A DNA stretch of 32,000 nucleotides from Candidatus Pelagibacter sp. HTCC7211 (GTDB lineage: Bacteria > Pseudomonadota > Alphaproteobacteria > Pelagibacterales > Pelagibacteraceae). The stretch covers positions 270,001 to 302,000 of the forward strand of contig NZ_DS995298.1 of the NCBI RefSeq assembly GCF_000155895.1, written 5' to 3'. The notes under the pieces are model-generated. The model did not search any database, was not told where the DNA came from, and was given only the letters and a program-made list of their open reading frames with translations. Below, in pieces: positions 4,014-24,993 of the stretch (the stretch's first letter is position 1; the number at the start of each line of letters is the position of its first letter). The position numbers were made by a program, and so were the translations under genes.

Positions 4014-5504
4014 ATGAAATTATTTTTTATACTTGGTAATCAATTATTTCCATTAAAATACATAGACCGCTTCAAAAAGGATCATGTGTTTTTTATGGCG
4101 GAAGATAACGGATTATGTACTTATGAAAAACATCATAAGCAAAAAATCTTATTATTTTTGTCCTCTATGCGCTCTTATGCTGATAATTTAAAGAAAAATA
4201 ACTTTAAATTAGATTATCTTAAAATTGAAGATAAGGATTTTAAGGATGATTATTTAAAAAAATTAAAAAAAAAAATTACTCAAAAAAAAATAACTGAAAT
4301 TTCAAGTTTTGAAGTAGAAGACAAATTTTTTGAAAAAAAAATTACACAATTTTTAAAAAAAGAAAAAATCAATTGGAATATTGTTCAAACACCCATGTTT
4401 TTAAATTCTAGAGATGAGTTTAAAAATTATTTAGGAAAATCTAAAAAACCTTTTATGGCAACATTTTATAAAGAAGTCAGACGAAAATCTGGAATACTAA
4501 TGGGTGCAGATGGAAACCCAATTGGGGGTAAGTGGAGTTTTGATGAAGATAACAGAAATAAACTTCCTAAAGATATTTCAATTCCAAAATTTCCAAAAAT
4601 AAACGAGACTACCCATACAAAAAAATTAAAACCCATAATTGAAAAAATATTTAAAGATCATCCTGGAAGTACAGATAATTTTTGGTTAGCAACAGAATAT
4701 GATGATGTTGTTAAACTTTTAAATTTTTTTATAAAAGAAAAATCTAATTTATTTGGCGATTATGAAGATGCAGTTAACCAAAAAGATAATATTTTATTTC
4801 ATAGCGCTCTTAGTCCTTATATTAACTTGGGTTTGATCACTCCTGAATTAATTATTCAAAAAATTTTAGATTTTCATAAAAAGAATAAAATTAGAATGAA
4901 CTCGCTTGAAGGATATATTCGTCAGGTCATTGGGTGGCGAGAATTTATGAGAGGTATTTACCAAGGATATTCTGAAAAAATGGAAACTGGAAATTTTTTC
5001 AAACAAAATAGAAAAATGAAAAATTCTTGGTATGTAGGAACTACAGGTCTACCACCATTAGATTATGCAATTAAAAATGCAGTTAATCACGGTTGGTCTC
5101 ATCATATTGAAAGGTTAATGATTTTATCTAACATAATGAACCTTTGTGAGATTAAGCCCACAATTGTTTACAAATGGTTTATGGAAATGTTTGTTGACTC
5201 ATCTGACTGGGTAATGGTTCCAAATGTTTATGGAATGGGATTATTTAGCGATGGAGGTATTTTTGCGACAAAGCCATATATCTGTGGTTCAAGTTATTTT
5301 ATGAAGATGATGGATTTTAAAAAGGGTGAGTGGTGCAACATTATGGATGGATTGTATTGGAGATTTATAGATCGAAATAGAAAATTTTTTTTAACAAATC
5401 CAAGATTATCCATGATGGTTCGTATTTTTGATAAAATGAAAAATGACAGAAAAAAAATGATTTTATCTGAAGCTGATAAATTTATTAAACATAATACAAT
5501 TTAG
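4014..5504 (+). CDS. Cryptochrome/photolyase-family protein of the COG3046 (CryB/PhrB, bacterial (6-4)-photolyase-like) type
   Basis: 496 aa. N-terminus 'LFFILGNQLFP' and 'FMAED...C.YEKHHKQKILLFLSSMR', then 'SALSPYINLGLITP', 'GYIRQVIGWREFMRGIY', 'HGWSHHIERLMILSN', 'DWVMVPNVYGM', 'TKPYICGSSY', 'NPRLSMM'. These are characteristic of the photolyase-related COG3046 family. Confidence 0.8.
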   Translation: MKLFFILGNQLFPLKYIDRFKKDHVFFMAEDNGLCTYEKHHKQKILLFLSSMRSYADNLKKNNFKLDYLKIEDKDFKDDYLKKLKKKITQKKITEISSFEVEDKFFEKKITQFLKKEKINWNIVQTPMFLNSRDEFKNYLGKSKKPFMATFYKEVRRKSGILMGADGNPIGGKWSFDEDNRNKLPKDISIPKFPKINETTHTKKLKPIIEKIFKDHPGSTDNFWLATEYDDVVKLLNFFIKEKSNLFGDYEDAVNQKDNILFHSALSPYINLGLITPELIIQKILDFHKKNKIRMNSLEGYIRQVIGWREFMRGIYQGYSEKMETGNFFKQNRKMKNSWYVGTTGLPPLDYAIKNAVNHGWSHHIERLMILSNIMNLCEIKPTIVYKWFMEMFVDSSDWVMVPNVYGMGLFSDGGIFATKPYICGSSYFMKMMDFKKGEWCNIMDGLYWRFIDRNRKFFLTNPRLSMMVRIFDKMKNDRKKMILSEADKFIKHNTI

Positions 5505-5632
5505 TGAAAAAAGAACATTTGCCATCAAAAATTTGTTTAGTATGTCATAGGCCATTTAAATGGAGAAAAAAATGGAAAATCAATTGGGATAAAGTTAAAT
5601 ATTGCTCAAAAAGATGCTCAAATAAAAAATGA
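5504..5632 (+). CDS. Small DUF2256-like zinc-ribbon protein (42 aa), absent from the ORF track
   Basis: GTG at 5504 overlaps the upstream TAG (TAGTG). My hand translation is VKKEHLPSKICLVCHRPFKWRKKWKINWDKVKYCSKRCSNKK*. The TGA at 5630-5632 overlaps the next ATG (ATGA). The CxxC...CxxxC pattern and 'WRKKW' match my memory of the DUF2256 family. Confidence 0.65.
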   Translation: MKKEHLPSKICLVCHRPFKWRKKWKINWDKVKYCSKRCSNKK

Positions 5633-7059
5633 AAAGTTTTTTTAAAAAAATAATAATTTTGTCGATTTTATCATTGCCCAATACTGTTAATGCTGATTTT
5701 TTTGAAGATATAACTTATAAAATTGAGAATAATTCTAAAAGACTTAGTTATGGAGTCTCGGTCACAGATATGGATCAAGATGGCAAATACGAATTTTTAG
5801 TTACTGGATTTGGTTATGCTAATTTAGCTTTATCTTATGATAATGGAAAATTAATTAATATCGCAAACAAAAATGTATTTTCTGATAAATTTAGAAAAAC
5901 TATTGGTGTTGCTGCATGTGACGTTGATAGAGATGGATATGAAGAAATATATTTTCTTAATACTGATACCTACAGCGGAAAAAAAAAATATTCTGATAGA
6001 CTGATTGATTTTGAAGAAAATAAGTTTTTAGATATGTTTGAAATTGAAAAAAATAAGGAAGATTTAAATTTAACAGCAGGAAGATCAGTGGCTTGCGTAG
6101 ATAGAGAAGGTAATGGAAGATATGGTCTTTATGTATCAAATTATGGTGGACCAACAAGATTCTATGAAATTGAAGATGGAAAGATAAAAGATAAAGCAGA
6201 AAATTTAAATTTAAATAATGTTACGGGTGGAAGGGCAGTTGTTTCAGGTCATATTTTAACAGACAAATCTGATATTTTTGCAGCAAATGAGCGGGGTGCA
6301 AATTATCTTTTAAAAAATAATGATGGTGTATTTGAAGATGTAGCATTTGATTTTCGTGTAGATGATGTGATTCAGAATGGTAGAGGAACTGTACTTTCAG
6401 ATATTTTATACAGAGGTAGGTTAGATATAATAAGTGGAAACTGGAAGGGATATCACAGAGCTTATGTTTTAGAAAATAATCAATTCAAAGATGTAGGGAG
6501 CAGTAAATTTGATAAACCCTCTAGAATTCGAACAATTATTTCTGCTGATTTTGATAATGATGGTTATGATGAAATTTTTATGAATAATATAGCTGAGCCC
6601 AACAAGTTATTTAGGATAAAAGAGAATGGAATATTTGAAGAAATTAAACTTGAAGTAGCTCTTGAAGCTGATGGATATGGAACAGGTGCTGCAGTTGCTG
6701 ACATCGATAATGATGGAATTCTAGAATTGATAGTGTCTCGTGGTGAAAGTAAAGAACAACCTTTAACTTTATATAAAGCAAAAGTTGATAAACAAAGCAA
6801 ATATTTGAGAATAAAACCGATTAATCTATTTGGTGCTCCAGCAAGAGGAGCAACTGTTACGTTGATTAGTAATCAAAGAAAACATTCAAAAACTATAGAT
6901 GCTGGATCAGGTTATCTGTGCCAAATGGAGCCTGTGGCACATTATGGAATTAGAAAAAATGAAAATAATTTTAAAGTAGAAGTAAAATGGACAAATGGTA
7001 CTAAAGATTTAATTAAAATAACTTCGTTAAATCAAACAATCACTATTAAGCAAAAATGA
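5629..7059 (+). CDS. Secreted FG-GAP/VCBS-repeat protein with C-terminal UnbV/ASPIC domain (CRTAC1-like)
   Basis: 476 aa. Signal peptide MKSFFKKIIILSILSLPNTVNA. Repeated Ca-binding DxDxDG loops ('DMDQDGKYEF', 'DVDRDGYEEI', 'DFDNDGYDEI', 'DIDNDGILEL'). C-terminal 'GATVTL.......T..AGSGYLCQMEPVAHYGI' is typical of ASPIC/UnbV. Confidence 0.8.
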   Translation: MKSFFKKIIILSILSLPNTVNADFFEDITYKIENNSKRLSYGVSVTDMDQDGKYEFLVTGFGYANLALSYDNGKLINIANKNVFSDKFRKTIGVAACDVDRDGYEEIYFLNTDTYSGKKKYSDRLIDFEENKFLDMFEIEKNKEDLNLTAGRSVACVDREGNGRYGLYVSNYGGPTRFYEIEDGKIKDKAENLNLNNVTGGRAVVSGHILTDKSDIFAANERGANYLLKNNDGVFEDVAFDFRVDDVIQNGRGTVLSDILYRGRLDIISGNWKGYHRAYVLENNQFKDVGSSKFDKPSRIRTIISADFDNDGYDEIFMNNIAEPNKLFRIKENGIFEEIKLEVALEADGYGTGAAVADIDNDGILELIVSRGESKEQPLTLYKAKVDKQSKYLRIKPINLFGAPARGATVTLISNQRKHSKTIDAGSGYLCQMEPVAHYGIRKNENNFKVEVKWTNGTKDLIKITSLNQTITIKQK

Positions 7060-7745
7060 AAAAAACTTTGTTTAAATTTACTATAATTATTTTTGCATTA
7101 ATTCAATTTGAAACATTCGCAAATGAAAAAAATTATTATAAAGAATTAATAACTGACTGGTCAAGAATATTTCCAGATCAAAATAGAAATGCTGCTGGGC
7201 CGAAGTTTTTTAAATATATCATAGACAAAGAAATTACTTTTAAGGATTTTACTGAATTTAATAAGTTATATTGTGCAGTTTCAGGATCATTAATTGATCC
7301 TGACAGTGAACCTGATTTTTTATTTGCCAAAGAAAGCAAAACTAACAAAAAAATTTGTGGCGATTACTACAAATGTTGTATTCCTTGTTCATGTGATGTC
7401 ATGAAATATTCTGAAGTTGAAAAAATGAAATATAAATTTTTAGATGGTTTTAAAGAATTTTACGTATTCACAATTAAAAATCCTTGTAACAAGAAAAATT
7501 TTCCAGATAAAGTAAATAAGAATTATTTTTGTGATGGAGAAAAAATAAACAATGATCAAGTTTATAATCTTAATGGTCGAATAGTTATAGGTTTATTACA
7601 TAAAGGCAGAGATTGTAACAAAGAGGAGATAGATTTTGTCAAAAGTCATCAAGTCACAGGAAAATTTTGCGAATTAAGAAACAACACTCCTTTAGAAAGT
7701 CTAAAAGGAGGTATGGGCGATATTTTTATAAAGCTCGCAAGATAA
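7056..7745 (+). CDS. Secreted cysteine-rich hypothetical protein (10 Cys; possible YHS/TRASH-like metal-binding segment)
   Basis: 229 aa. ATGA overlap with the upstream gene. Signal peptide MKKTLFKFTIIIFALIQFETFA. Cys at residues 73, 101, 107, 108, 111, 113, 144, 159, 187 and 205. 'YCAVSGSLI...GDYYKCCIPCSCD' resembles YHS/TRASH patterns. Confidence 0.6.
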   Translation: MKKTLFKFTIIIFALIQFETFANEKNYYKELITDWSRIFPDQNRNAAGPKFFKYIIDKEITFKDFTEFNKLYCAVSGSLIDPDSEPDFLFAKESKTNKKICGDYYKCCIPCSCDVMKYSEVEKMKYKFLDGFKEFYVFTIKNPCNKKNFPDKVNKNYFCDGEKINNDQVYNLNGRIVIGLLHKGRDCNKEEIDFVKSHQVTGKFCELRNNTPLESLKGGMGDIFIKLAR

Positions 7746-7792: not shown

Positions 7793-8512
7793 GTGAATAT
7801 AATTGTATTGCAACACATTAAAATTGAAGATCCTGGCTACATTAAAGATTTGATGTTAACAGATAGGGTCAACTTAACCACCATAGAATTAGACGAAGGT
7901 GAAAAAATTCCAAACGATCTTAGTAAGTTTGACGGGATGTTTTGCATGGGAGGTCCAATGGATACTTTTATGGAGAAAGAATATCCTTGGTTAATTGAAG
8001 AAAAAAAAACAATTAAAGATTTTGTGATAAATTTAAAAAAACCTTATCTTGGTTTTTGTTTAGGTTGCCAGTTATTAGGTGAAGTTGTCGGAGGCAAGGT
8101 AGTGAAATCAACTCCAGCAGAGATCGGTATTATGGACATTCATTTCTCACAACAAAAAGATGAAGATAGATTATTTTCACAATTTCCAAATCAGATTAAA
8201 AGTTTGCAATGGCATTCCTATGAGGTTCAGGGTATTGAAAATAATAAGGATGTAACTTTACTGGCTTCATCACCTATAACTAAATATCAAATTTTTAAAT
8301 ATCAAGATCACGCATATGGAATTCAATTTCATATAGAAATTAAAGATACTACAGTCAATGAATGGGGATGTGTTCCAGAATATAAAAAAGCTCTTGAGGA
8401 TCAGTTGGGAGATGGTGCTCTAGAAAAATTTGATAACGCAGCAAAAGATAATATGTCCGATATGAATAGCTATTCTAAGATCTTGTATCAAAATTTTAAA
8501 AAAATATTATGA
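7793..8512 (+). CDS. Class I glutamine amidotransferase (GATase1, COG0518-like stand-alone domain)
   Basis: 239 aa from a GTG start. The N-terminus 'NIIVLQH...EDPG' fits the family. Nucleophile elbow 'GFCLGCQLL' and His/Glu of the triad in 'GIQFHIE'. Confidence 0.8.
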   Translation: MNIIVLQHIKIEDPGYIKDLMLTDRVNLTTIELDEGEKIPNDLSKFDGMFCMGGPMDTFMEKEYPWLIEEKKTIKDFVINLKKPYLGFCLGCQLLGEVVGGKVVKSTPAEIGIMDIHFSQQKDEDRLFSQFPNQIKSLQWHSYEVQGIENNKDVTLLASSPITKYQIFKYQDHAYGIQFHIEIKDTTVNEWGCVPEYKKALEDQLGDGALEKFDNAAKDNMSDMNSYSKILYQNFKKIL

Positions 8513-8730
8513 AGAATAAATTTTTTGAATGGGCAGGAGTTGTTACTGCTATTTTATATTCATTATTTGTTGCACTAAATATTGGAATAGAATTTTTAGG
8601 TTTCTGCTTATTACTTTTATCAGCAATTTTAATTGGTATTTGGGCTTATAGGGGTGGTCACAAAGGAATATTATTATTACAATTTTTTTATGCAACAGCA
8701 GGAATTGTTGGAATGATTAGATGGTTTTAG
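8509..8730 (+). CDS. 73-aa three-TM membrane protein resembling the N-terminal half of PnuC-type vitamin transporters
   Basis: ATGA overlap with the GATase gene. Three hydrophobic spans. 'FEWAGVVTAILYSLFVALN' and 'ILLLQFFYATAGIVGMIRW' parallel E. coli PnuC 'WIEAVGTIAGLLCIGLASLE' and 'SLLLQVFFFAANIYGWYAW' as I recall that sequence. Confidence 0.5.
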   Translation: MKNKFFEWAGVVTAILYSLFVALNIGIEFLGFCLLLLSAILIGIWAYRGGHKGILLLQFFYATAGIVGMIRWF

Positions 8731-8777: not shown

Positions 8778-10925
8778 ATGGAAAATTTAAATTTAGAAAA
8801 TGTAAAATCTTATGTAGATACCTTATGGGTTATTGATTGCGCTATATTAGTTTTTATTATGCAAGCAGGTTTTATGTGCATGGAAACTGGACTTTCTAGA
8901 CATAAAAACAGTATTAATGTTGCATTAAAAAATGCAGCCGATTTTGGAGTTTCAGTCGTTATTTTTTGGATTTTCGGTTTCGGTCTGATGTTTGGTTCAA
9001 GTTATAATGGTTTGTTTGGAACTGATTTGTTCTTTTTTAAAACAACCAACGCTGAATATATGACTTATTTTGTTTTCCAAGCAATGTTTGTTGCAACGGC
9101 AGCTACAATTATTTCAGGAGCTGTTGCAGAGAGAATGAAATTTAATGGCTATTTAATAATTACAATTTTAGCAACTGGAATTATTTATCCAATTGTAGGT
9201 CATTGGGCTTGGTCTTCGAGCTATTTAAGTAATATTGATAGTGCTAAAGAATTATTGAATGAAGTAGATCAGGTTACGTCGACAGGTTGGTTAACTAATT
9301 TAGGATTTGTAGATTTTGCAGGTAGCACAATAGTTCACTCAGTTGGTGGATGGATTGCTCTTTCAGCGGTAATAATTATTGGTCCTAGGATTGGCAAATA
9401 TTCTGAGTCAAATAAAGGAAAATTTACTGGCTCAAGTTTTCCTTTAGCCGTTCTTGGTACTTTAATTTTATGGTTTGGATGGTTTGGATTTAATGGTGGT
9501 AGTAATGGTGCAATGGATGAGGCTGTTCCATTAATTTTAATAAATACTTTTCTTGCTGCAGCGTTTGGCTTGTTAACAGGTTTAGGAACTTCATTTATAA
9601 TTTATAAAAAACCAGACCCTTTTTATGTTGTTCTAGGTCCTTTAGCGGGATTAGTAGCTATAACCGCAGGGTGTAATTCAATGACAACCGTAGTTGCAAT
9701 TTTTGTTGGAATAATTGGAGCACTAGTAGCAGTGCTAATTACAGAGATTTTAAATAAATATGAAATTGACGATGTAGTAGGAGCAGTACCAGTTCATTTA
9801 GGAGCAGGTGTTTGGGGAACTCTAGCGGTAGGTTTTTTTAGTGATTTAAATATTTTAGGAACAGATCTAACAAGACTAGAACAAATAAAAGCACAATTTA
9901 TTGGAGTTTTAACAATAGGAGCTTTTTCTTTTTTCGGATCATATATAATTTTAAGAATTTTAAATTATTTTTATCCATTGAGAGTTACTCCTCTACAAGA
10001 AGAGTTAGGATTGAATATAGCTGAGCATAATGCGGTTTCAGTAGAACATGATTTAATTTCAATTTTAGAAAAACAATCTCAAAGTGGAGATCTTGCTATT
10101 AGAGGGCCTCAAGATCCATTTACAGCAGGAGGTGTAATTGGACTTTATTATAATAAATTGATGAATAAGCTTGAGATTAGTGAAAAAGAAAAAGAAAAAT
10201 GGCGAAGTAGAATATCTAAAGAAGTAAATTTAGCAGTAAAAGTTCAAGAAAATTTCTTACCAAAAAGAGATTTACAAAATTACCCTGTACATGGAATTAA
10301 TATTGCTGCTAGAGAAGTTTCAGGAGACTTCTTTAGCTTTTATCCTCACAATGACAGTATTTATTTTATTATAGCCGATGTTGCTGGTAAAGGTGTTCAT
10401 GCAGGGATGGTAATGGCAAAAGCTTCAACTTTATTTGAAGTAATGTCAAGAGACCAGGTTGATCCAGATGAAATGATGTTTCATATGAACAATGATTTAT
10501 TTATCACTAAAACTTCTGGTATGTTTGTTACCTGTGTGCTTGGAAAATATGATCTAATTTCAGATGAAATCACATGGGTAAATGGTGGACATCAACCAGC
10601 TATAATTAGGAATGAGAAGGGTGAATACCAAAGTTTTGGTAGTGACGCACCACCAATGGGGGTTATTTCTCAAAAAGATAAATCAATTTATAAAATCAAT
10701 AAACAAGTTTTAAATGGAAATAAATTTTATGTTTTCACAGATGGGTTATCAGAGAGTTTAGATGAAGAAGGAAAAGAAATAGGCATAGATGGTTCAATTA
10801 AGATTATTGAGGATAATTATACAAAGGACTCGAAAAGACACTTATCAGATATTACTAAAAAAATAATTAAAATTTCTGGGCCTGGAAAATTAAGTGATGA
10901 TCTTACTTTAATATCAATTGGATAG
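8778..10925 (+). CDS. amt: Ammonium transporter (Amt/MEP) fused to a C-terminal PP2C/SpoIIE (RsbU-like) serine phosphatase domain
   Basis: 715 aa, uninterrupted. Amt motifs: 'IMQAGFMCMETG', 'DFAGSTIVHSVGGW' (His187), 'LWFGWFGFNGGS', 'AVPVHLGAGVWG' (His340), 'EELGLNIAEHN'. PP2C motifs from about aa 480 (nt ~10215): 'SGDFFSF', 'IADVAGKGVHAG', 'VNGGH', 'FVFTDGLSE', 'SDDLTLISI'. Confidence 0.9.
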   Translation: MENLNLENVKSYVDTLWVIDCAILVFIMQAGFMCMETGLSRHKNSINVALKNAADFGVSVVIFWIFGFGLMFGSSYNGLFGTDLFFFKTTNAEYMTYFVFQAMFVATAATIISGAVAERMKFNGYLIITILATGIIYPIVGHWAWSSSYLSNIDSAKELLNEVDQVTSTGWLTNLGFVDFAGSTIVHSVGGWIALSAVIIIGPRIGKYSESNKGKFTGSSFPLAVLGTLILWFGWFGFNGGSNGAMDEAVPLILINTFLAAAFGLLTGLGTSFIIYKKPDPFYVVLGPLAGLVAITAGCNSMTTVVAIFVGIIGALVAVLITEILNKYEIDDVVGAVPVHLGAGVWGTLAVGFFSDLNILGTDLTRLEQIKAQFIGVLTIGAFSFFGSYIILRILNYFYPLRVTPLQEELGLNIAEHNAVSVEHDLISILEKQSQSGDLAIRGPQDPFTAGGVIGLYYNKLMNKLEISEKEKEKWRSRISKEVNLAVKVQENFLPKRDLQNYPVHGINIAAREVSGDFFSFYPHNDSIYFIIADVAGKGVHAGMVMAKASTLFEVMSRDQVDPDEMMFHMNNDLFITKTSGMFVTCVLGKYDLISDEITWVNGGHQPAIIRNEKGEYQSFGSDAPPMGVISQKDKSIYKINKQVLNGNKFYVFTDGLSESLDEEGKEIGIDGSIKIIEDNYTKDSKRHLSDITKKIIKISGPGKLSDDLTLISIG

Positions 10926-22687: not shown

Positions 22688-23839
22688 ATGAATCTTAATG
22701 ACTGCCATAATTTTAGTGATTTTCGAAAATTAGCTAAAAAAAAATTACCATCACCCATATTTCATTATATTGATGGTGCTGCAGATGATGAGATAACTTA
22801 TGCACGAAATACGAGTGCATTTGATGATGTTGACTTAGTTCCAAATGTTTTAAGAGGTGTGGAAAACGTTGATTTATCAACAACAATATTTGGAAAAAAA
22901 TTAGATTTGCCATTTTATTTAGCACCTACTGCTTTGCAAAGATTATTTCACTATGATGGTGAGAGAGCAGTTGGTAAAGCTGCAAAAAAATTTAATACTA
23001 TGTTTGGAGTATCAGCTTTAGCCACAGTTAGTGTTGAAGAAATATCTTCCATGATTGATACACCAAAGATGTTTCAGTTTTATTTTCATAAAGATAGAGG
23101 TTTAAACGACTCTTGTTTAGAAAGAGCTAAAGCAGCTAAATTTGATGTTATGGCATTAACGGTGGATACTATAACAGGAGGAAATCGAGAAAGAGATTTA
23201 AGAACTGGATTTACATCACCACCTAAGCTTACATTATCTAGCTTATTTAGTTTTGCCACAAAGCCAATGTGGGGGATAAATTATTTAACAAAAGGAAAAT
23301 TTGAATTACCTCATCTTCAAGATTATGTAAAAGAAGGTACCGACACTAACACTTCTATTGGAAATTATTTTTCTACAATGTTGGACCAATCTATGAACTG
23401 GAAAGATGCAGAAAAACTCTGCTCTCAGTGGGGAGGTCATTTTGCTTTAAAAGGTGTTATGAGTGTTGAAGATGCAAAAAGAGCAGTTGATATAGGTTGC
23501 ACAGGTATAATGGTCTCAAATCATGGTGGAAGACAACTTGATGGATCAAGGTCACCTTTTGACCAACTTGCTGAAATTGTTGATGCTGTAGGTGATAAAC
23601 TCGATGTAATTTGCGAAGGTGGAATACATAGAGGAACACACATGCTTAAAGCCTTATCATTAGGGGCCAAGGCTTGTTCTGGTGGTAGATTATATCTTTA
23701 TGCATTAGCTGCTGGAGGACAAGCAGGTGTTGAAAGAGCTATTGAAAAGTACAAAACTGAATTAGTAAGAGACATGAAATTAATGGGTTGTACAAAGATT
23801 AGTGATCTAAACAGAAACAATCTAAGATTTAGAAGATAG
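22688..23839 (+). CDS. FMN-dependent alpha-hydroxyacid dehydrogenase/oxidase (LldD-like), copy 1
   Basis: 383 aa. 'LPSPIFHYIDGAADDE', 'FQFYFHKDR', 'ALTVDT...GNRERD', 'ALKGVMSVEDA', 'VSNHGGRQLDGS', 'GGIHRG'. Collinear with E. coli LldD, including the membrane-associated insert. Confidence 0.85.
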   Translation: MNLNDCHNFSDFRKLAKKKLPSPIFHYIDGAADDEITYARNTSAFDDVDLVPNVLRGVENVDLSTTIFGKKLDLPFYLAPTALQRLFHYDGERAVGKAAKKFNTMFGVSALATVSVEEISSMIDTPKMFQFYFHKDRGLNDSCLERAKAAKFDVMALTVDTITGGNRERDLRTGFTSPPKLTLSSLFSFATKPMWGINYLTKGKFELPHLQDYVKEGTDTNTSIGNYFSTMLDQSMNWKDAEKLCSQWGGHFALKGVMSVEDAKRAVDIGCTGIMVSNHGGRQLDGSRSPFDQLAEIVDAVGDKLDVICEGGIHRGTHMLKALSLGAKACSGGRLYLYALAAGGQAGVERAIEKYKTELVRDMKLMGCTKISDLNRNNLRFRR

Positions 23840-23841
23840 TA

Positions 23842-24993
23842 ATGAATTTAAAAGATTGTCACAATTTTAGCGATTTTAGAAAATTAGCTAAAAAAAAATT
23901 ACCTTCTCCAATTTTTCATTATATTGATGGTGGTGCAGATGACGAGTCGACATTAAGAAGAAATACAGACTCATTTAATGACTGTGATTTAGTTCCAAAT
24001 ATTTTGGCTAGTGTTGGAAAACCTGATTTATCTACAACTTTATTTGGAAGAAAAATAGATATGCCAATTTTTCTTTCGCCTGCAGCCATGCAAAGACTTT
24101 ATCATCCAGATGGAGACCAAGCATCAGCAAGAGCTGCAGAAAAGTTTAATACATTTTATAGTATGTCATCTATGGGAAATAATACTATTGAGGAGGTTTC
24201 AAATATTTCTAGTGGTCCAAAATTATTTCAACTTTATGTTCATAAAGATAGATCAATTTCTGACGATTTAATTGATAGATCTAGAAGATCTGGTTTTGAT
24301 GCTATGTGTTTAACAGTAGATACTTTAGTTGCAGGTAATAGAGAAAAAGATCATAGAACAGGATTTACTACTCCACCAAAACTTACACTTCAGAGCTTAA
24401 TGAGCTTTGCTATGCGACCAAAATGGGTTTTTAATTATTTAACCGGAAAAAAATTTGAATTATCTAATGTTAAAAAAAAGACAGATAAAGGAACTAATAT
24501 TGCAAAGTCCGTAATTGAATACATAAATGAGCAATATGATCCTGCAATGGGCTGGAAAGATGCAGAGTATTGTGCAAAAAAATGGAATGGACCTTTTGCT
24601 TTAAAAGGTGTGATGTCAGTTGAGGATGCAAAAAAAGCAATAGATATTGGGTGTACAGCAATAATGATATCAAATCATGGTGGAAGACAACTTGATGGAT
24701 CTAGATCACCTTTTGATCAAGTAAAAGCTATTTCTGATGCTGTGGGAGATAAATTGGAAATAATATTAGATGGAGGGGTTAGGAGAGGGACCCATGTTTT
24801 AAAGGCCTTAGCTGCTGGTGCTACAGCATGTAGTTTTGGTAAAATGTTTCTGTTCTCTTTGGCCGCAGGAGGGCAGCAAGGAGTTGAACATTTATTGCAA
24901 AACATGCATGATGAAATTAATAGAAATATGGTATTGATGGGCTGTAAAAATTTAAAAGAATTAAACAGTTCAAAATTAATTTATAGAAAGTAA
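23842..24993 (+). CDS. FMN-dependent alpha-hydroxyacid dehydrogenase/oxidase (LldD-like), copy 2 (tandem paralogue)
   Basis: 383 aa, gap-free alignment to copy 1. 'FHYIDGGADDESTLRRN', 'FQLYVHKDR', 'CLTVDT..AGNREKD', 'ALKGVMSVEDA', 'ISNHGGRQLDGS', 'GGVRRG'. Confidence 0.85.
   Translation: MNLKDCHNFSDFRKLAKKKLPSPIFHYIDGGADDESTLRRNTDSFNDCDLVPNILASVGKPDLSTTLFGRKIDMPIFLSPAAMQRLYHPDGDQASARAAEKFNTFYSMSSMGNNTIEEVSNISSGPKLFQLYVHKDRSISDDLIDRSRRSGFDAMCLTVDTLVAGNREKDHRTGFTTPPKLTLQSLMSFAMRPKWVFNYLTGKKFELSNVKKKTDKGTNIAKSVIEYINEQYDPAMGWKDAEYCAKKWNGPFALKGVMSVEDAKKAIDIGCTAIMISNHGGRQLDGSRSPFDQVKAISDAVGDKLEIILDGGVRRGTHVLKALAAGATACSFGKMFLFSLAAGGQQGVEHLLQNMHDEINRNMVLMGCKNLKELNSSKLIYRK

Follow-up and report, generated by a model that had tools for sequence, protein, structure and literature searches.

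An Amt-PP2C fusion protein of Candidatus Pelagibacter sp. HTCC7211 as a candidate ammonium-gated input to a SAR11 partner-switching module

We analysed a stretch of 32,000 nucleotides of Candidatus Pelagibacter sp. HTCC7211 (NCBI RefSeq assembly GCF_000155895.1, contig NZ_DS995298.1, positions 270,001 to 302,000 of the forward strand; hereafter, the window), in which one gene encodes an ammonium transporter family (Amt) module fused through a linker to a phosphatase domain of the PP2C (PPM) type. The fusion is, in our judgement, probably the ammonium-gated input phosphatase of a SAR11 partner-switching module. The architecture of the protein, the conservation of its sensing and catalytic residues, the linkage of its orthologs to genes for a STAS protein and an RsbW-like kinase, and the phosphorylation of STAS proteins in SAR11 strain HTCC1062 are each demonstrated, either here or in published work. 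The parts of the gene are the following (window coordinates, strand, description and basis).

8778..10925, + strand: Amt-linker-PP2C gene, 715 aa, stop codon included (list of open reading frames; two Pfam domains on one chain)
8817..10037, + strand: Amt membrane module, residues 14-420 (PF00909; PDB sequence matches; 36-fusion alignment)
8862..9116, + strand: stretch with the N1/N2 ligands Q29, F32, E36, N52, D55, F56, T110 and S113 (alignment to Sd-Amt1)
9228..9266, + strand: periplasmic-loop insertion S151-V163, 13 residues (L010 ortholog; Sd-Amt1; 36-fusion alignment)
10038..10277, + strand: HAMP-like linker, residues 421-500 (Sd-Amt1 homology; AlphaFold2; heptad pattern)
10278..10922, + strand: RsbU/SpoIIE-type PPM (PP2C) domain, residues 501-715 (PF07228; conserved residues; Foldseek)

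A single gene encodes the fusion

The open reading frame (ORF) at 8778-10925 starts with ATG and is uninterrupted over 715 codons for amino acids, as an earlier note on this DNA, made from the sequence alone, had described. Ammonium_transp (PF00909; residues 17-419, E 2.9e-109, spanning profile positions 2-396 of 399) and SpoIIE (PF07228; residues 526-714, E 8.1e-34) were both matched on the one polypeptide, as that note had expected, and the NCBIfam model TIGR00836 'amt' gave 390.7 bits against a cut-off of 343.3. Every motif that it had quoted is present: IVHSVGGW (residues 185-192), FGWFGFNGGS (233-242), VPVHLGAG (337-344) and EELGLNIAEHN (408-418) in the Amt half, and EISEKEKEKW (466-475), SGDFF (515-519), ADVAGKG (533-539), FTDGLSE (653-659) and SDDLTL (706-711) in the linker and PP2C half. 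The protein is 100% identical to the NCBI entry 'ammonium transporter family protein [Candidatus Pelagibacter sp. HTCC7211]', which settles the suspected host in the Pelagibacterales. Moreover, both Pfam domains were found in all of the best 120 database relatives (93-100% identity, 681-716 aa), drawn from many independent metagenome contigs and single-cell genomes, with no sign of two genes, and intact copies are abundant in ocean metagenomes. We conclude from the identical database entry and the 120 relatives that the fusion is real and no frameshift artefact; the many independent full-length copies rule out a reading as two adjacent genes.

Conservation was assessed in an alignment of the window protein with 35 further distinct full-length fusions from the retrieved loci (36 fusions in all), among which the lowest identities to the window protein are 48% for the Amt module, 38% for the linker and 29% for the PP2C domain. 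SAR11 fusions form three subgroups, of 714-717 aa (the window protein, with the insertion), 702-703 aa (without it) and 726-761 aa, and two subgroups occur in tandem in several genomes, as in HTCC1062. The Amt-PP2C fusion is not exclusive to SAR11, because a non-SAR11 contig with a G+C content of 56% encodes, at 9072-12571 of L001, two STAS proteins and, directly downstream, an Amt-SpoIIE-HATPase_c_2 protein of 856 aa. In this chain a whole partner-switching input is carried on a single polypeptide.

The Amt module resembles ammonium receptors

A PDB-wide sequence search ranked first Sd-Amt1, the Amt-HAMP-GGDEF protein of Shewanella denitrificans (PDB 8qj3/8qj4/8qpf; PMC11152129), with 396 bits and query residues 11-480 aligned, the homology running on through the HAMP region to residue 480. 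Ks-Amt5, the Amt-histidine kinase of 'Ca. Kuenenia stuttgartiensis' (PDB 6eu6; PMC5764959), came second with 294 bits, and transporters followed behind (Af-Amt1, 152 bits; AmtB, about 98 bits). The residues of the pore are present: the Phe gate F104/F238, the vestibule residues W145/S242, the twin histidines H187/H340 (F98/F221, W139/S225 and H169/H323, respectively, in Sd-Amt1) and D179. All are invariant in the 36 fusions except S242, which is Ala in 13. The defining feature of the receptor class is the set of residues that coordinate two ions at a lateral site, N1/N2 (Pflüger et al., 2024, PMC11152129), and here Q29, F32, E36, N52, D55, F56, T110 and S113 match Q22, F25, E29, N45, D48, F49, T104 and S107 of Sd-Amt1 residue by residue and are invariant in 36/36 fusions. 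By similarity, the Amt half thus appears far closer to the receptor kind than to the transporter kind. With the proven receptors Sd-Amt1 and Ks-Amt5 as its nearest relatives and all of the N1/N2 ligands kept, the ammonium-sensor interpretation put forward in the earlier note is the best one.

Some features of the Amt half speak against this assignment. The published N1/N2 signature, QX6EX15NX2D[F/T]X54-60TX2[S/T], which marks the AmR 'cluster 2' (PMC11152129), is missed by one residue, solely because one loop is X53 rather than X54-60; all the ligands are present. The signature is also found in ammonium-transporting AMT1 proteins of plants, such as At-AMT1;1 (PMC11152129), so it is no proof of a receptor-only role. 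In addition, Sd-Amt1 has an exit-blocking residue, N269, in place of which the window protein has Leu and the second subgroup Thr. Because of the plant AMT1 proteins and of this Leu, transport by the Amt half is conceivable. The protein could then be a transceptor, a working transporter and sensor in which flux through the pore, and not static occupancy of N1/N2, gates the phosphatase, along the lines proposed for yeast Mep2 and plant AMT1. The intact and invariant Phe gate, twin histidines, W145 and D179 would suit such a protein, as would the company of proven transporters in the N1/N2 cluster and the lack of conservation of the exit blocker. However, the nearest characterised relatives, Sd-Amt1 and Ks-Amt5, bind NH4+ without translocating it (PMC11152129), and in SAR11 it is separate, non-fused Amt paralogs that respond to nitrogen status, not the fused ones. 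We regard a transceptor as rather unlikely, although it is the strongest competitor of a receptor that works by occupancy.

The earlier note also pointed to an insertion of about 20 residues in a periplasmic loop. The insertion is real, but it is smaller and restricted to one subgroup: it measures 13 residues against the nearest orthologs, 12 against Sd-Amt1 and about 22 against Af-Amt1, is confined to the subgroup of 714-717 aa, and is absent from both Sd-Amt1 and a 74%-identical ortholog (L010).

A predicted helical linker leads into an RsbU/SpoIIE-type phosphatase domain

In an AlphaFold2 model (predicted local distance difference test score, pLDDT, 91.8; predicted template modelling score, pTM, 0.83), residues 422-435 form a helix that is followed by a loop and by a 41-residue helix (453-493) entering the PPM fold; the first helix was modelled at a pLDDT of only about 66-70. 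The Pfam HAMP model had no match on the fusion protein at E<=0.01. The heptad a/d positions of the long helix, IYLLSKWIEAVF, are hydrophobic at 9/12 and polar at the other three, and the linker is 80-86% identical across subgroup 1. Dimerisation driven by the linker activates RsbU, a mechanism proposed to be general and to include HAMP-PPM proteins (PMC12143880). By analogy, the heptad pattern matches what would be expected of the regulated coiled-coil linkers that activate RsbU-type phosphatases.

The predicted PP2C metal ligands are D517, D534, D655 and D707/D708. D517, D534, G537-K538-G539, D655-G656, E659, D707-D708 and T710 are found in 36/36 fusions and in at least 90% of 150 PP2C relatives. 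Taken with the invariance of the pore and sensing-site residues (bar S242), this agrees with the view expressed in the earlier note that both halves look catalytically intact. It also bears on a reading in which the PP2C fold is a pseudo-phosphatase, a degenerate adaptor used for binding only. E. coli RssB offers a precedent for this in the same structural family (PMC12143880), but the GKG, DG..E and DDxT motifs and all four metal-binding Asp residues do not vary among the fusions; we reject this reading on that ground and find it barely credible.

The best Foldseek matches of the domain were RssB of P. aeruginosa, the PP2C domain of SiaA (template modelling score 0.83, normalised to the target), Rv1364c, SpoIIE and RsbX, with E values down to 1.5e-14. 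A search with residues 421-715 against 1.84 billion representatives returned 53,712 relatives. An Amt module was present in only 2 of the 149 best of them; other relatives sampled were PP2C proteins linked to GAF, receiver, HDOD, CHASE2 or HAMP domains, some with a fused RsbW-type kinase domain. Compared with solved structures, the profile of the relatives matched Rv1364c, a Pseudomonas receiver-PP2C protein, SiaA and SpoIIE. Both sequence and model suggest that the PP2C half groups with phosphatases that act on STAS or STAS-like substrates in partner switching, and such proteins are the known substrates of the RsbU/SpoIIE/RssB/SiaA group in the part of PMC11418112 covered here.

Orthologs of the fusion lie near STAS and RsbW-like genes

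Species-representative genomes were scanned with a kinase alignment, which matched 304 stretches; the best 80 of these, all from Pelagibacteraceae, were analysed. A STAS gene lies directly 5' of the RsbW-like kinase gene in 79/80 loci, and the kinase gene is followed by pilC in 80/80 and by pilB in 78/80. The motif YMDSSGIS was found in 78/78 STAS matches, and the kinase N-box and GGLG in 80/80 loci. Genes for PP2C inputs were counted in the 43 loci whose upstream flank extends over at least 8.5 kb. An Amt-PP2C gene lies within 10 kb in 18 of these, its start 1.6-7.2 kb from that of the kinase gene; a CHASE2-PP2C gene, the commoner of the two, is found in 29, both in 8 and at least one in 39. 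The four kinase loci without any PP2C gene within 10 kb suggest that action in trans is normal in the clade. The CHASE2-PP2C protein seems to give the same module a second input, comparable to the pair RsbU/RsbP. An example of this CHASE2-SpoIIE membrane phosphatase is encoded at 4356-6335 (- strand) of L008; it is found upstream of the STAS-kinase pair in 30 of the loci L013-L092.

Individual loci show the same arrangement. The 74%-identical ortholog of the window protein (L010) lies 3 kb from a STAS-kinase pair, and on SAR11-type contigs a 726-aa paralog is encoded between type IV pilus genes and a pair of STAS and HATPase_c_2 genes. A 111-aa gene just upstream of this paralog was considered as a further STAS gene and discarded, its product having a signal-peptide-like N-terminus and no STAS match. 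Directly after the paralog lies a gene for a truncated globin (PF01152; L005-L007, 12181-12546). In hypervariable region 4 (HVR4) of HTCC1062 (SAR11_1216-1219), a globin gene stands beside a gene annotated 'phosphatase, sigB regulator', between two pilin genes; an association of PP2C, globin and pilin genes thus recurs. The description of the fusion in the earlier note as having no visible partner proteins is true of the window and misleading for the lineage, in which a pair of STAS and RsbW-like genes is usually found near the orthologs. The linkage data, we note, come almost entirely from one bacterial family, a point that counts against our interpretation, since the conserved synteny could in part reflect inheritance.

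STAS proteins are phosphorylated in HTCC1062

In HTCC1062, the fusions SAR11_0049/0050 are followed a few genes downstream by the pilins 0053/0054 and then by rsbW, SAR11_0057. A phosphoproteome of this strain published in 2025 lists 1,014 Ser/Thr/Tyr phosphosites on 555 proteins (PMC13198564). In the portion of its supplement covered here, the adjacent STAS proteins AAZ20880/AAZ20881 are phosphorylated in vivo at S54/S55 in the DSSG motif, one peptide having 1,199 spectral matches, and the next protein, AAZ20882, is represented by a peptide typical of an RsbW-like kinase. The same portion of the supplement records phosphorylation of AAZ20882 itself, at S2 and S76, and phospho-T97/T99 on the pilin AAZ20879. 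According to the authors, RsbW is the sole Ser/Thr kinase of HTCC1062 and no protein phosphatase is known (PMC13198564); the study overlooked the PP2C domains within genes labelled 'ammonium transporter'. SAR11_0049/0050 were detected in HTCC1062 and their levels did not change under nitrogen limitation, whereas the non-fused SAR11_0818 (induced) and SAR11_1310 responded (Smith et al., 2013, PMC3870248). Expression at levels insensitive to nitrogen fits a constitutive sensor.

With so many phosphosites and no known phosphatase, the fused PP2C domains are among few candidates for a broader role. They might serve as a general Ser/Thr phosphatase of SAR11, or else act in cis on the cytoplasmic regions of the transporter itself, in the manner of the C-terminal phosphoregulation of plant AMT1 and Mep2. 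We hold either role to be quite improbable: the domain belongs to a group whose substrates, in so far as PMC11418112 is covered, are STAS or STAS-like proteins, its gene is tightly linked to STAS-RsbW genes, and the part of the PMC13198564 supplement covered has no phosphosite on AAZ20875.

The HTCC7211 gene stands apart from its putative partners

The window has a G+C content of about 30%. None of its ORFs of at least 80 aa (leaving aside an 83-aa ORF that lies antisense within the IalB gene) has a Pfam match to PII/GlnK, a STAS domain, an RsbW-type kinase or a sigma factor, and a tblastn search of the window with SAR11 STAS and kinase proteins found no match. The claims of the earlier note that glnK/PII is not adjacent and that no STAS, RsbW-type kinase or sigma-factor gene lies in the 32 kb accordingly stand. 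The flanks were extended by means of contigs that carry identical copies of genes near the window ends, and over about 9-10 kb beyond either end no partner gene was seen. No HTCC7211 STAS or RsbW protein was named among the top matches listed in homolog and cluster searches, which were not exhaustive, and literature searches did not show one either. These absences weigh against a partner-switching role in the window strain. The pilus region that carries the STAS-kinase pair occurs in some SAR11 genomes and not in others, and one Bermuda Atlantic Time-series Study (BATS) genome is without it (PMC12789548), which counts in the same direction. HTCC7211 itself is a Sargasso Sea isolate.

The gene also lies away from the pilus-linked position held by its orthologs, between two genes related to photolyases and cryptochromes (Pfam):

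4014-5504, + strand: DPRP + FAD_binding_7 protein, 496 aa
10956-12095, - strand: FAD_binding_7-only protein, 379 aa

Taken together, the empty surroundings (about 50 kb around the gene), the searches for named partners, the patchy pilus cluster and the relocation of the gene would fit an orphan, that is, a strain without the STAS/RsbW/pilus region in which the phosphatase either acts on some other substrate or persists as a relic for the sake of the Amt function. We think this unlikely. The PP2C residues are fully conserved, and at the relocated locus the copies on hundreds of metagenomic contigs are intact and 95-99% identical, a pattern that points to purifying selection. Moreover, the congener SAG-MED49 has the same relocated locus, with a 98%-identical fusion and the same photolyase-type bracket, and it carries the STAS-kinase-pilus module on a different contig; its DNA matches that of the window at only about 87% identity, which limits how far this genome can stand in for HTCC7211. 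The kinase loci without a nearby PP2C gene, in which action in trans would be normal, also argue against an orphan.

Other features of the locus are recorded here. Directly upstream of the fusion gene, a hydrophobic 73-aa ORF (8509-8730, + strand) whose start overlaps the stop of the GATase gene has no family match. It is kept directly upstream of the fusion at the relocated locus in other contigs and is absent from all pilus-linked loci; as a locus-specific ORF it was ruled out as a member of the system. Just upstream of the fusion gene, between the DPRP and GATase genes, is a small flexible spot: window positions 5629-7745 hold a 476-aa FG-GAP/ASPIC gene and an ORF of 229 aa without a Pfam match, whereas a VTT_dom gene takes their place in SAG-MED49. 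A small DUF2256 gene comes right after DPRP in SAG-MED49 and in a near-identical contig of a metagenome-assembled genome. Farther away, tandem paralogs of a 383-aa flavin mononucleotide-dependent dehydrogenase of the glycolate/lactate-oxidase type (22688-23839 and 23842-24993, + strand) are followed by genes for an aminotransferase, an FAD-linked oxidase, a 2-hydroxyacid dehydrogenase and a TRAP transporter. No Rfam family was matched anywhere in the window, nor did the scan show riboswitch-like elements such as have been described upstream of amt genes elsewhere in SAR11. Around the fusion gene, a scan for promoters and terminators yielded no signal beyond that expected from shuffled sequence. 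When phage genomes were searched by tblastn with the fusion protein, the only matches were unrelated Amt genes, and the search was uninformative.

A model for ammonium-dependent partner switching

The gating by ammonium and its direction, STAS as the substrate, and the output are the elements that we infer. In the model, external NH4+ would enter the Amt pore through the normal selectivity filter and occupy the lateral N1/N2 site below the twin histidines, and this occupancy would shift the membrane module at its C-terminal end. The change may pass through the HAMP-like hairpin and on to the long amphipathic helix, so that two of the three cytoplasmic arms of the trimer pair or unpair. By analogy with Sd-Amt1 and RsbU, the pairing of the arms would set the dimerisation-dependent activity of the RsbU-type PP2C domain. 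Its likely substrate would be the phosphoserine of one or more small SAR11 STAS proteins with the motif YMDSSGIS, phosphorylated by the RsbW-like kinase. Ammonium availability would in this way set the phosphorylation state of the partner-switching module, to which the CHASE2-PP2C protein may contribute a second input in many genomes.

The only lead to the output of the module is the adjacency of pilC and pilB. SAR11 pili have been suggested to serve DNA uptake in nitrogen-poor water (PMC12789548), and the two together make pili an attractive output, if a doubtful one. Equally tentative is the whole chain that can be drawn from it, in which ammonium, through the Amt-PP2C protein and a sigma-independent STAS/RsbW pair, would govern the deployment of type IV pili, for example in the scavenging of DNA or nucleotides for nitrogen, with the CHASE2-PP2C protein as second input. 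The earlier note had gone further and suggested that the fusion could be a major missing nitrogen-sensing input. This is overstated: the gene lies in flexible genome regions, Amt-PP2C genes are found near fewer than half of the well-flanked kinase loci and CHASE2-PP2C genes near more of them, the levels of SAR11_0049/0050 are unaffected by nitrogen limitation, and nothing ties the output to nitrogen assimilation.

Comparison with known systems and published work

The sequence match between Sd-Amt1 and the window protein covers the Amt module and the linker, and the two share identical N1/N2 ligands and a C-terminal cytoplasmic transducer, dimeric in action, beneath a trimeric sensor. Its output is a diguanylate cyclase, whereas that of the window protein is a PP2C serine phosphatase; the window protein also differs in the Leu at the position of N269, in the extra 12-residue periplasmic loop and in having no Pfam HAMP match. 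Ks-Amt5 likewise has the two-ion N1/N2 site in an Amt protein repurposed as a receptor, but its histidine kinase feeds a two-component pathway, whereas the phosphatase described here would feed partner switching. The AmtB-GlnK pair of E. coli and most bacteria also joins an Amt-family trimer to a signalling element in the cytoplasm. In the window protein, however, this element is covalently fused and there is no adjacent glnK, and AmtB, a member of cluster 1, is without an N1/N2 site (PMC11152129). The PII network is reported to be absent from most SAR11 (PMC3870248).

The closest parallel for the output half is the RsbU/RsbP-RsbV-RsbW system of B. subtilis, with its relatives P. aeruginosa RssB, SiaA and M. 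tuberculosis Rv1364c. In both cases a PPM domain follows a regulatory alpha-helical linker, and the SAR11 lineage has a STAS protein with a conserved phosphoserine and an RsbW-like HATPase_c_2 kinase; the alternative inputs RsbU and RsbP are paralleled by the Amt- and CHASE2-PP2C proteins. In contrast, the input of the window protein is a membrane ammonium receptor, its partners are not encoded beside it, and the SAR11 module lies next to type IV pilus genes and has no known target of the sigma-B type.

The core idea of the earlier note was already in print. Two of the four AMTs of HTCC1062 were reported to have 'contained the Pfam for SpoIIE' (McDonald et al., 2010, PMC2944026), and in 2025 'Amt-GI5' of Mediterranean SAR11 (gMED), a 716-aa protein with an Amt module, a HAMP-like linker and a phosphoprotein phosphatase domain, was proposed to be an ammonium sensor (PMC11796062). 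Amt-GI5, which was equated with SAR11_0049/0050, belongs to the same family as the window protein. To the authors of that study the fusion seemed confined to SAR11, and they reported neither a cognate transducer nor a further protein with a phosphatase domain (PMC11796062), whereas we find STAS-RsbW pairs, CHASE2-PP2C proteins and a non-SAR11 fusion. The claim of novelty made in the earlier note accordingly fails for the architecture and the sensor proposal and holds for function: in the literature searched we found no experimental work on any Amt-PP2C protein, which must also be set against our interpretation, and no paper that connects the fused PP2C domains, STAS/RsbW and the HTCC1062 phosphoproteome. 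What appears to be new is the STAS/RsbW link, the conservation of the receptor site, the second input by CHASE2-PP2C and the Amt-PP2C-kinase fusion outside SAR11.

Implications

The significance of these findings is tempered by the earlier publication of the architecture and of the sensor idea, by the place of the gene in the flexible genome and by partners that were shown only outside the window strain. SAR11 bacteria, the most abundant in the sea, do without the PII/NtrBC system of nitrogen control. Amt-derived receptors are experimentally known with two outputs, histidine kinase and diguanylate cyclase, and a serine phosphatase output that feeds partner switching would represent a third type of wiring. 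The PP2C domains within 'ammonium transporter' genes are obvious candidates for the missing protein phosphatase of SAR11, and the heavily phosphorylated STAS proteins encoded beside RsbW are concrete candidate substrates. If the tentative chain from ammonium to the pili is correct, both the missing phosphatase of the SAR11 phosphoproteome and a PII-independent path for a nitrogen signal would have been identified.

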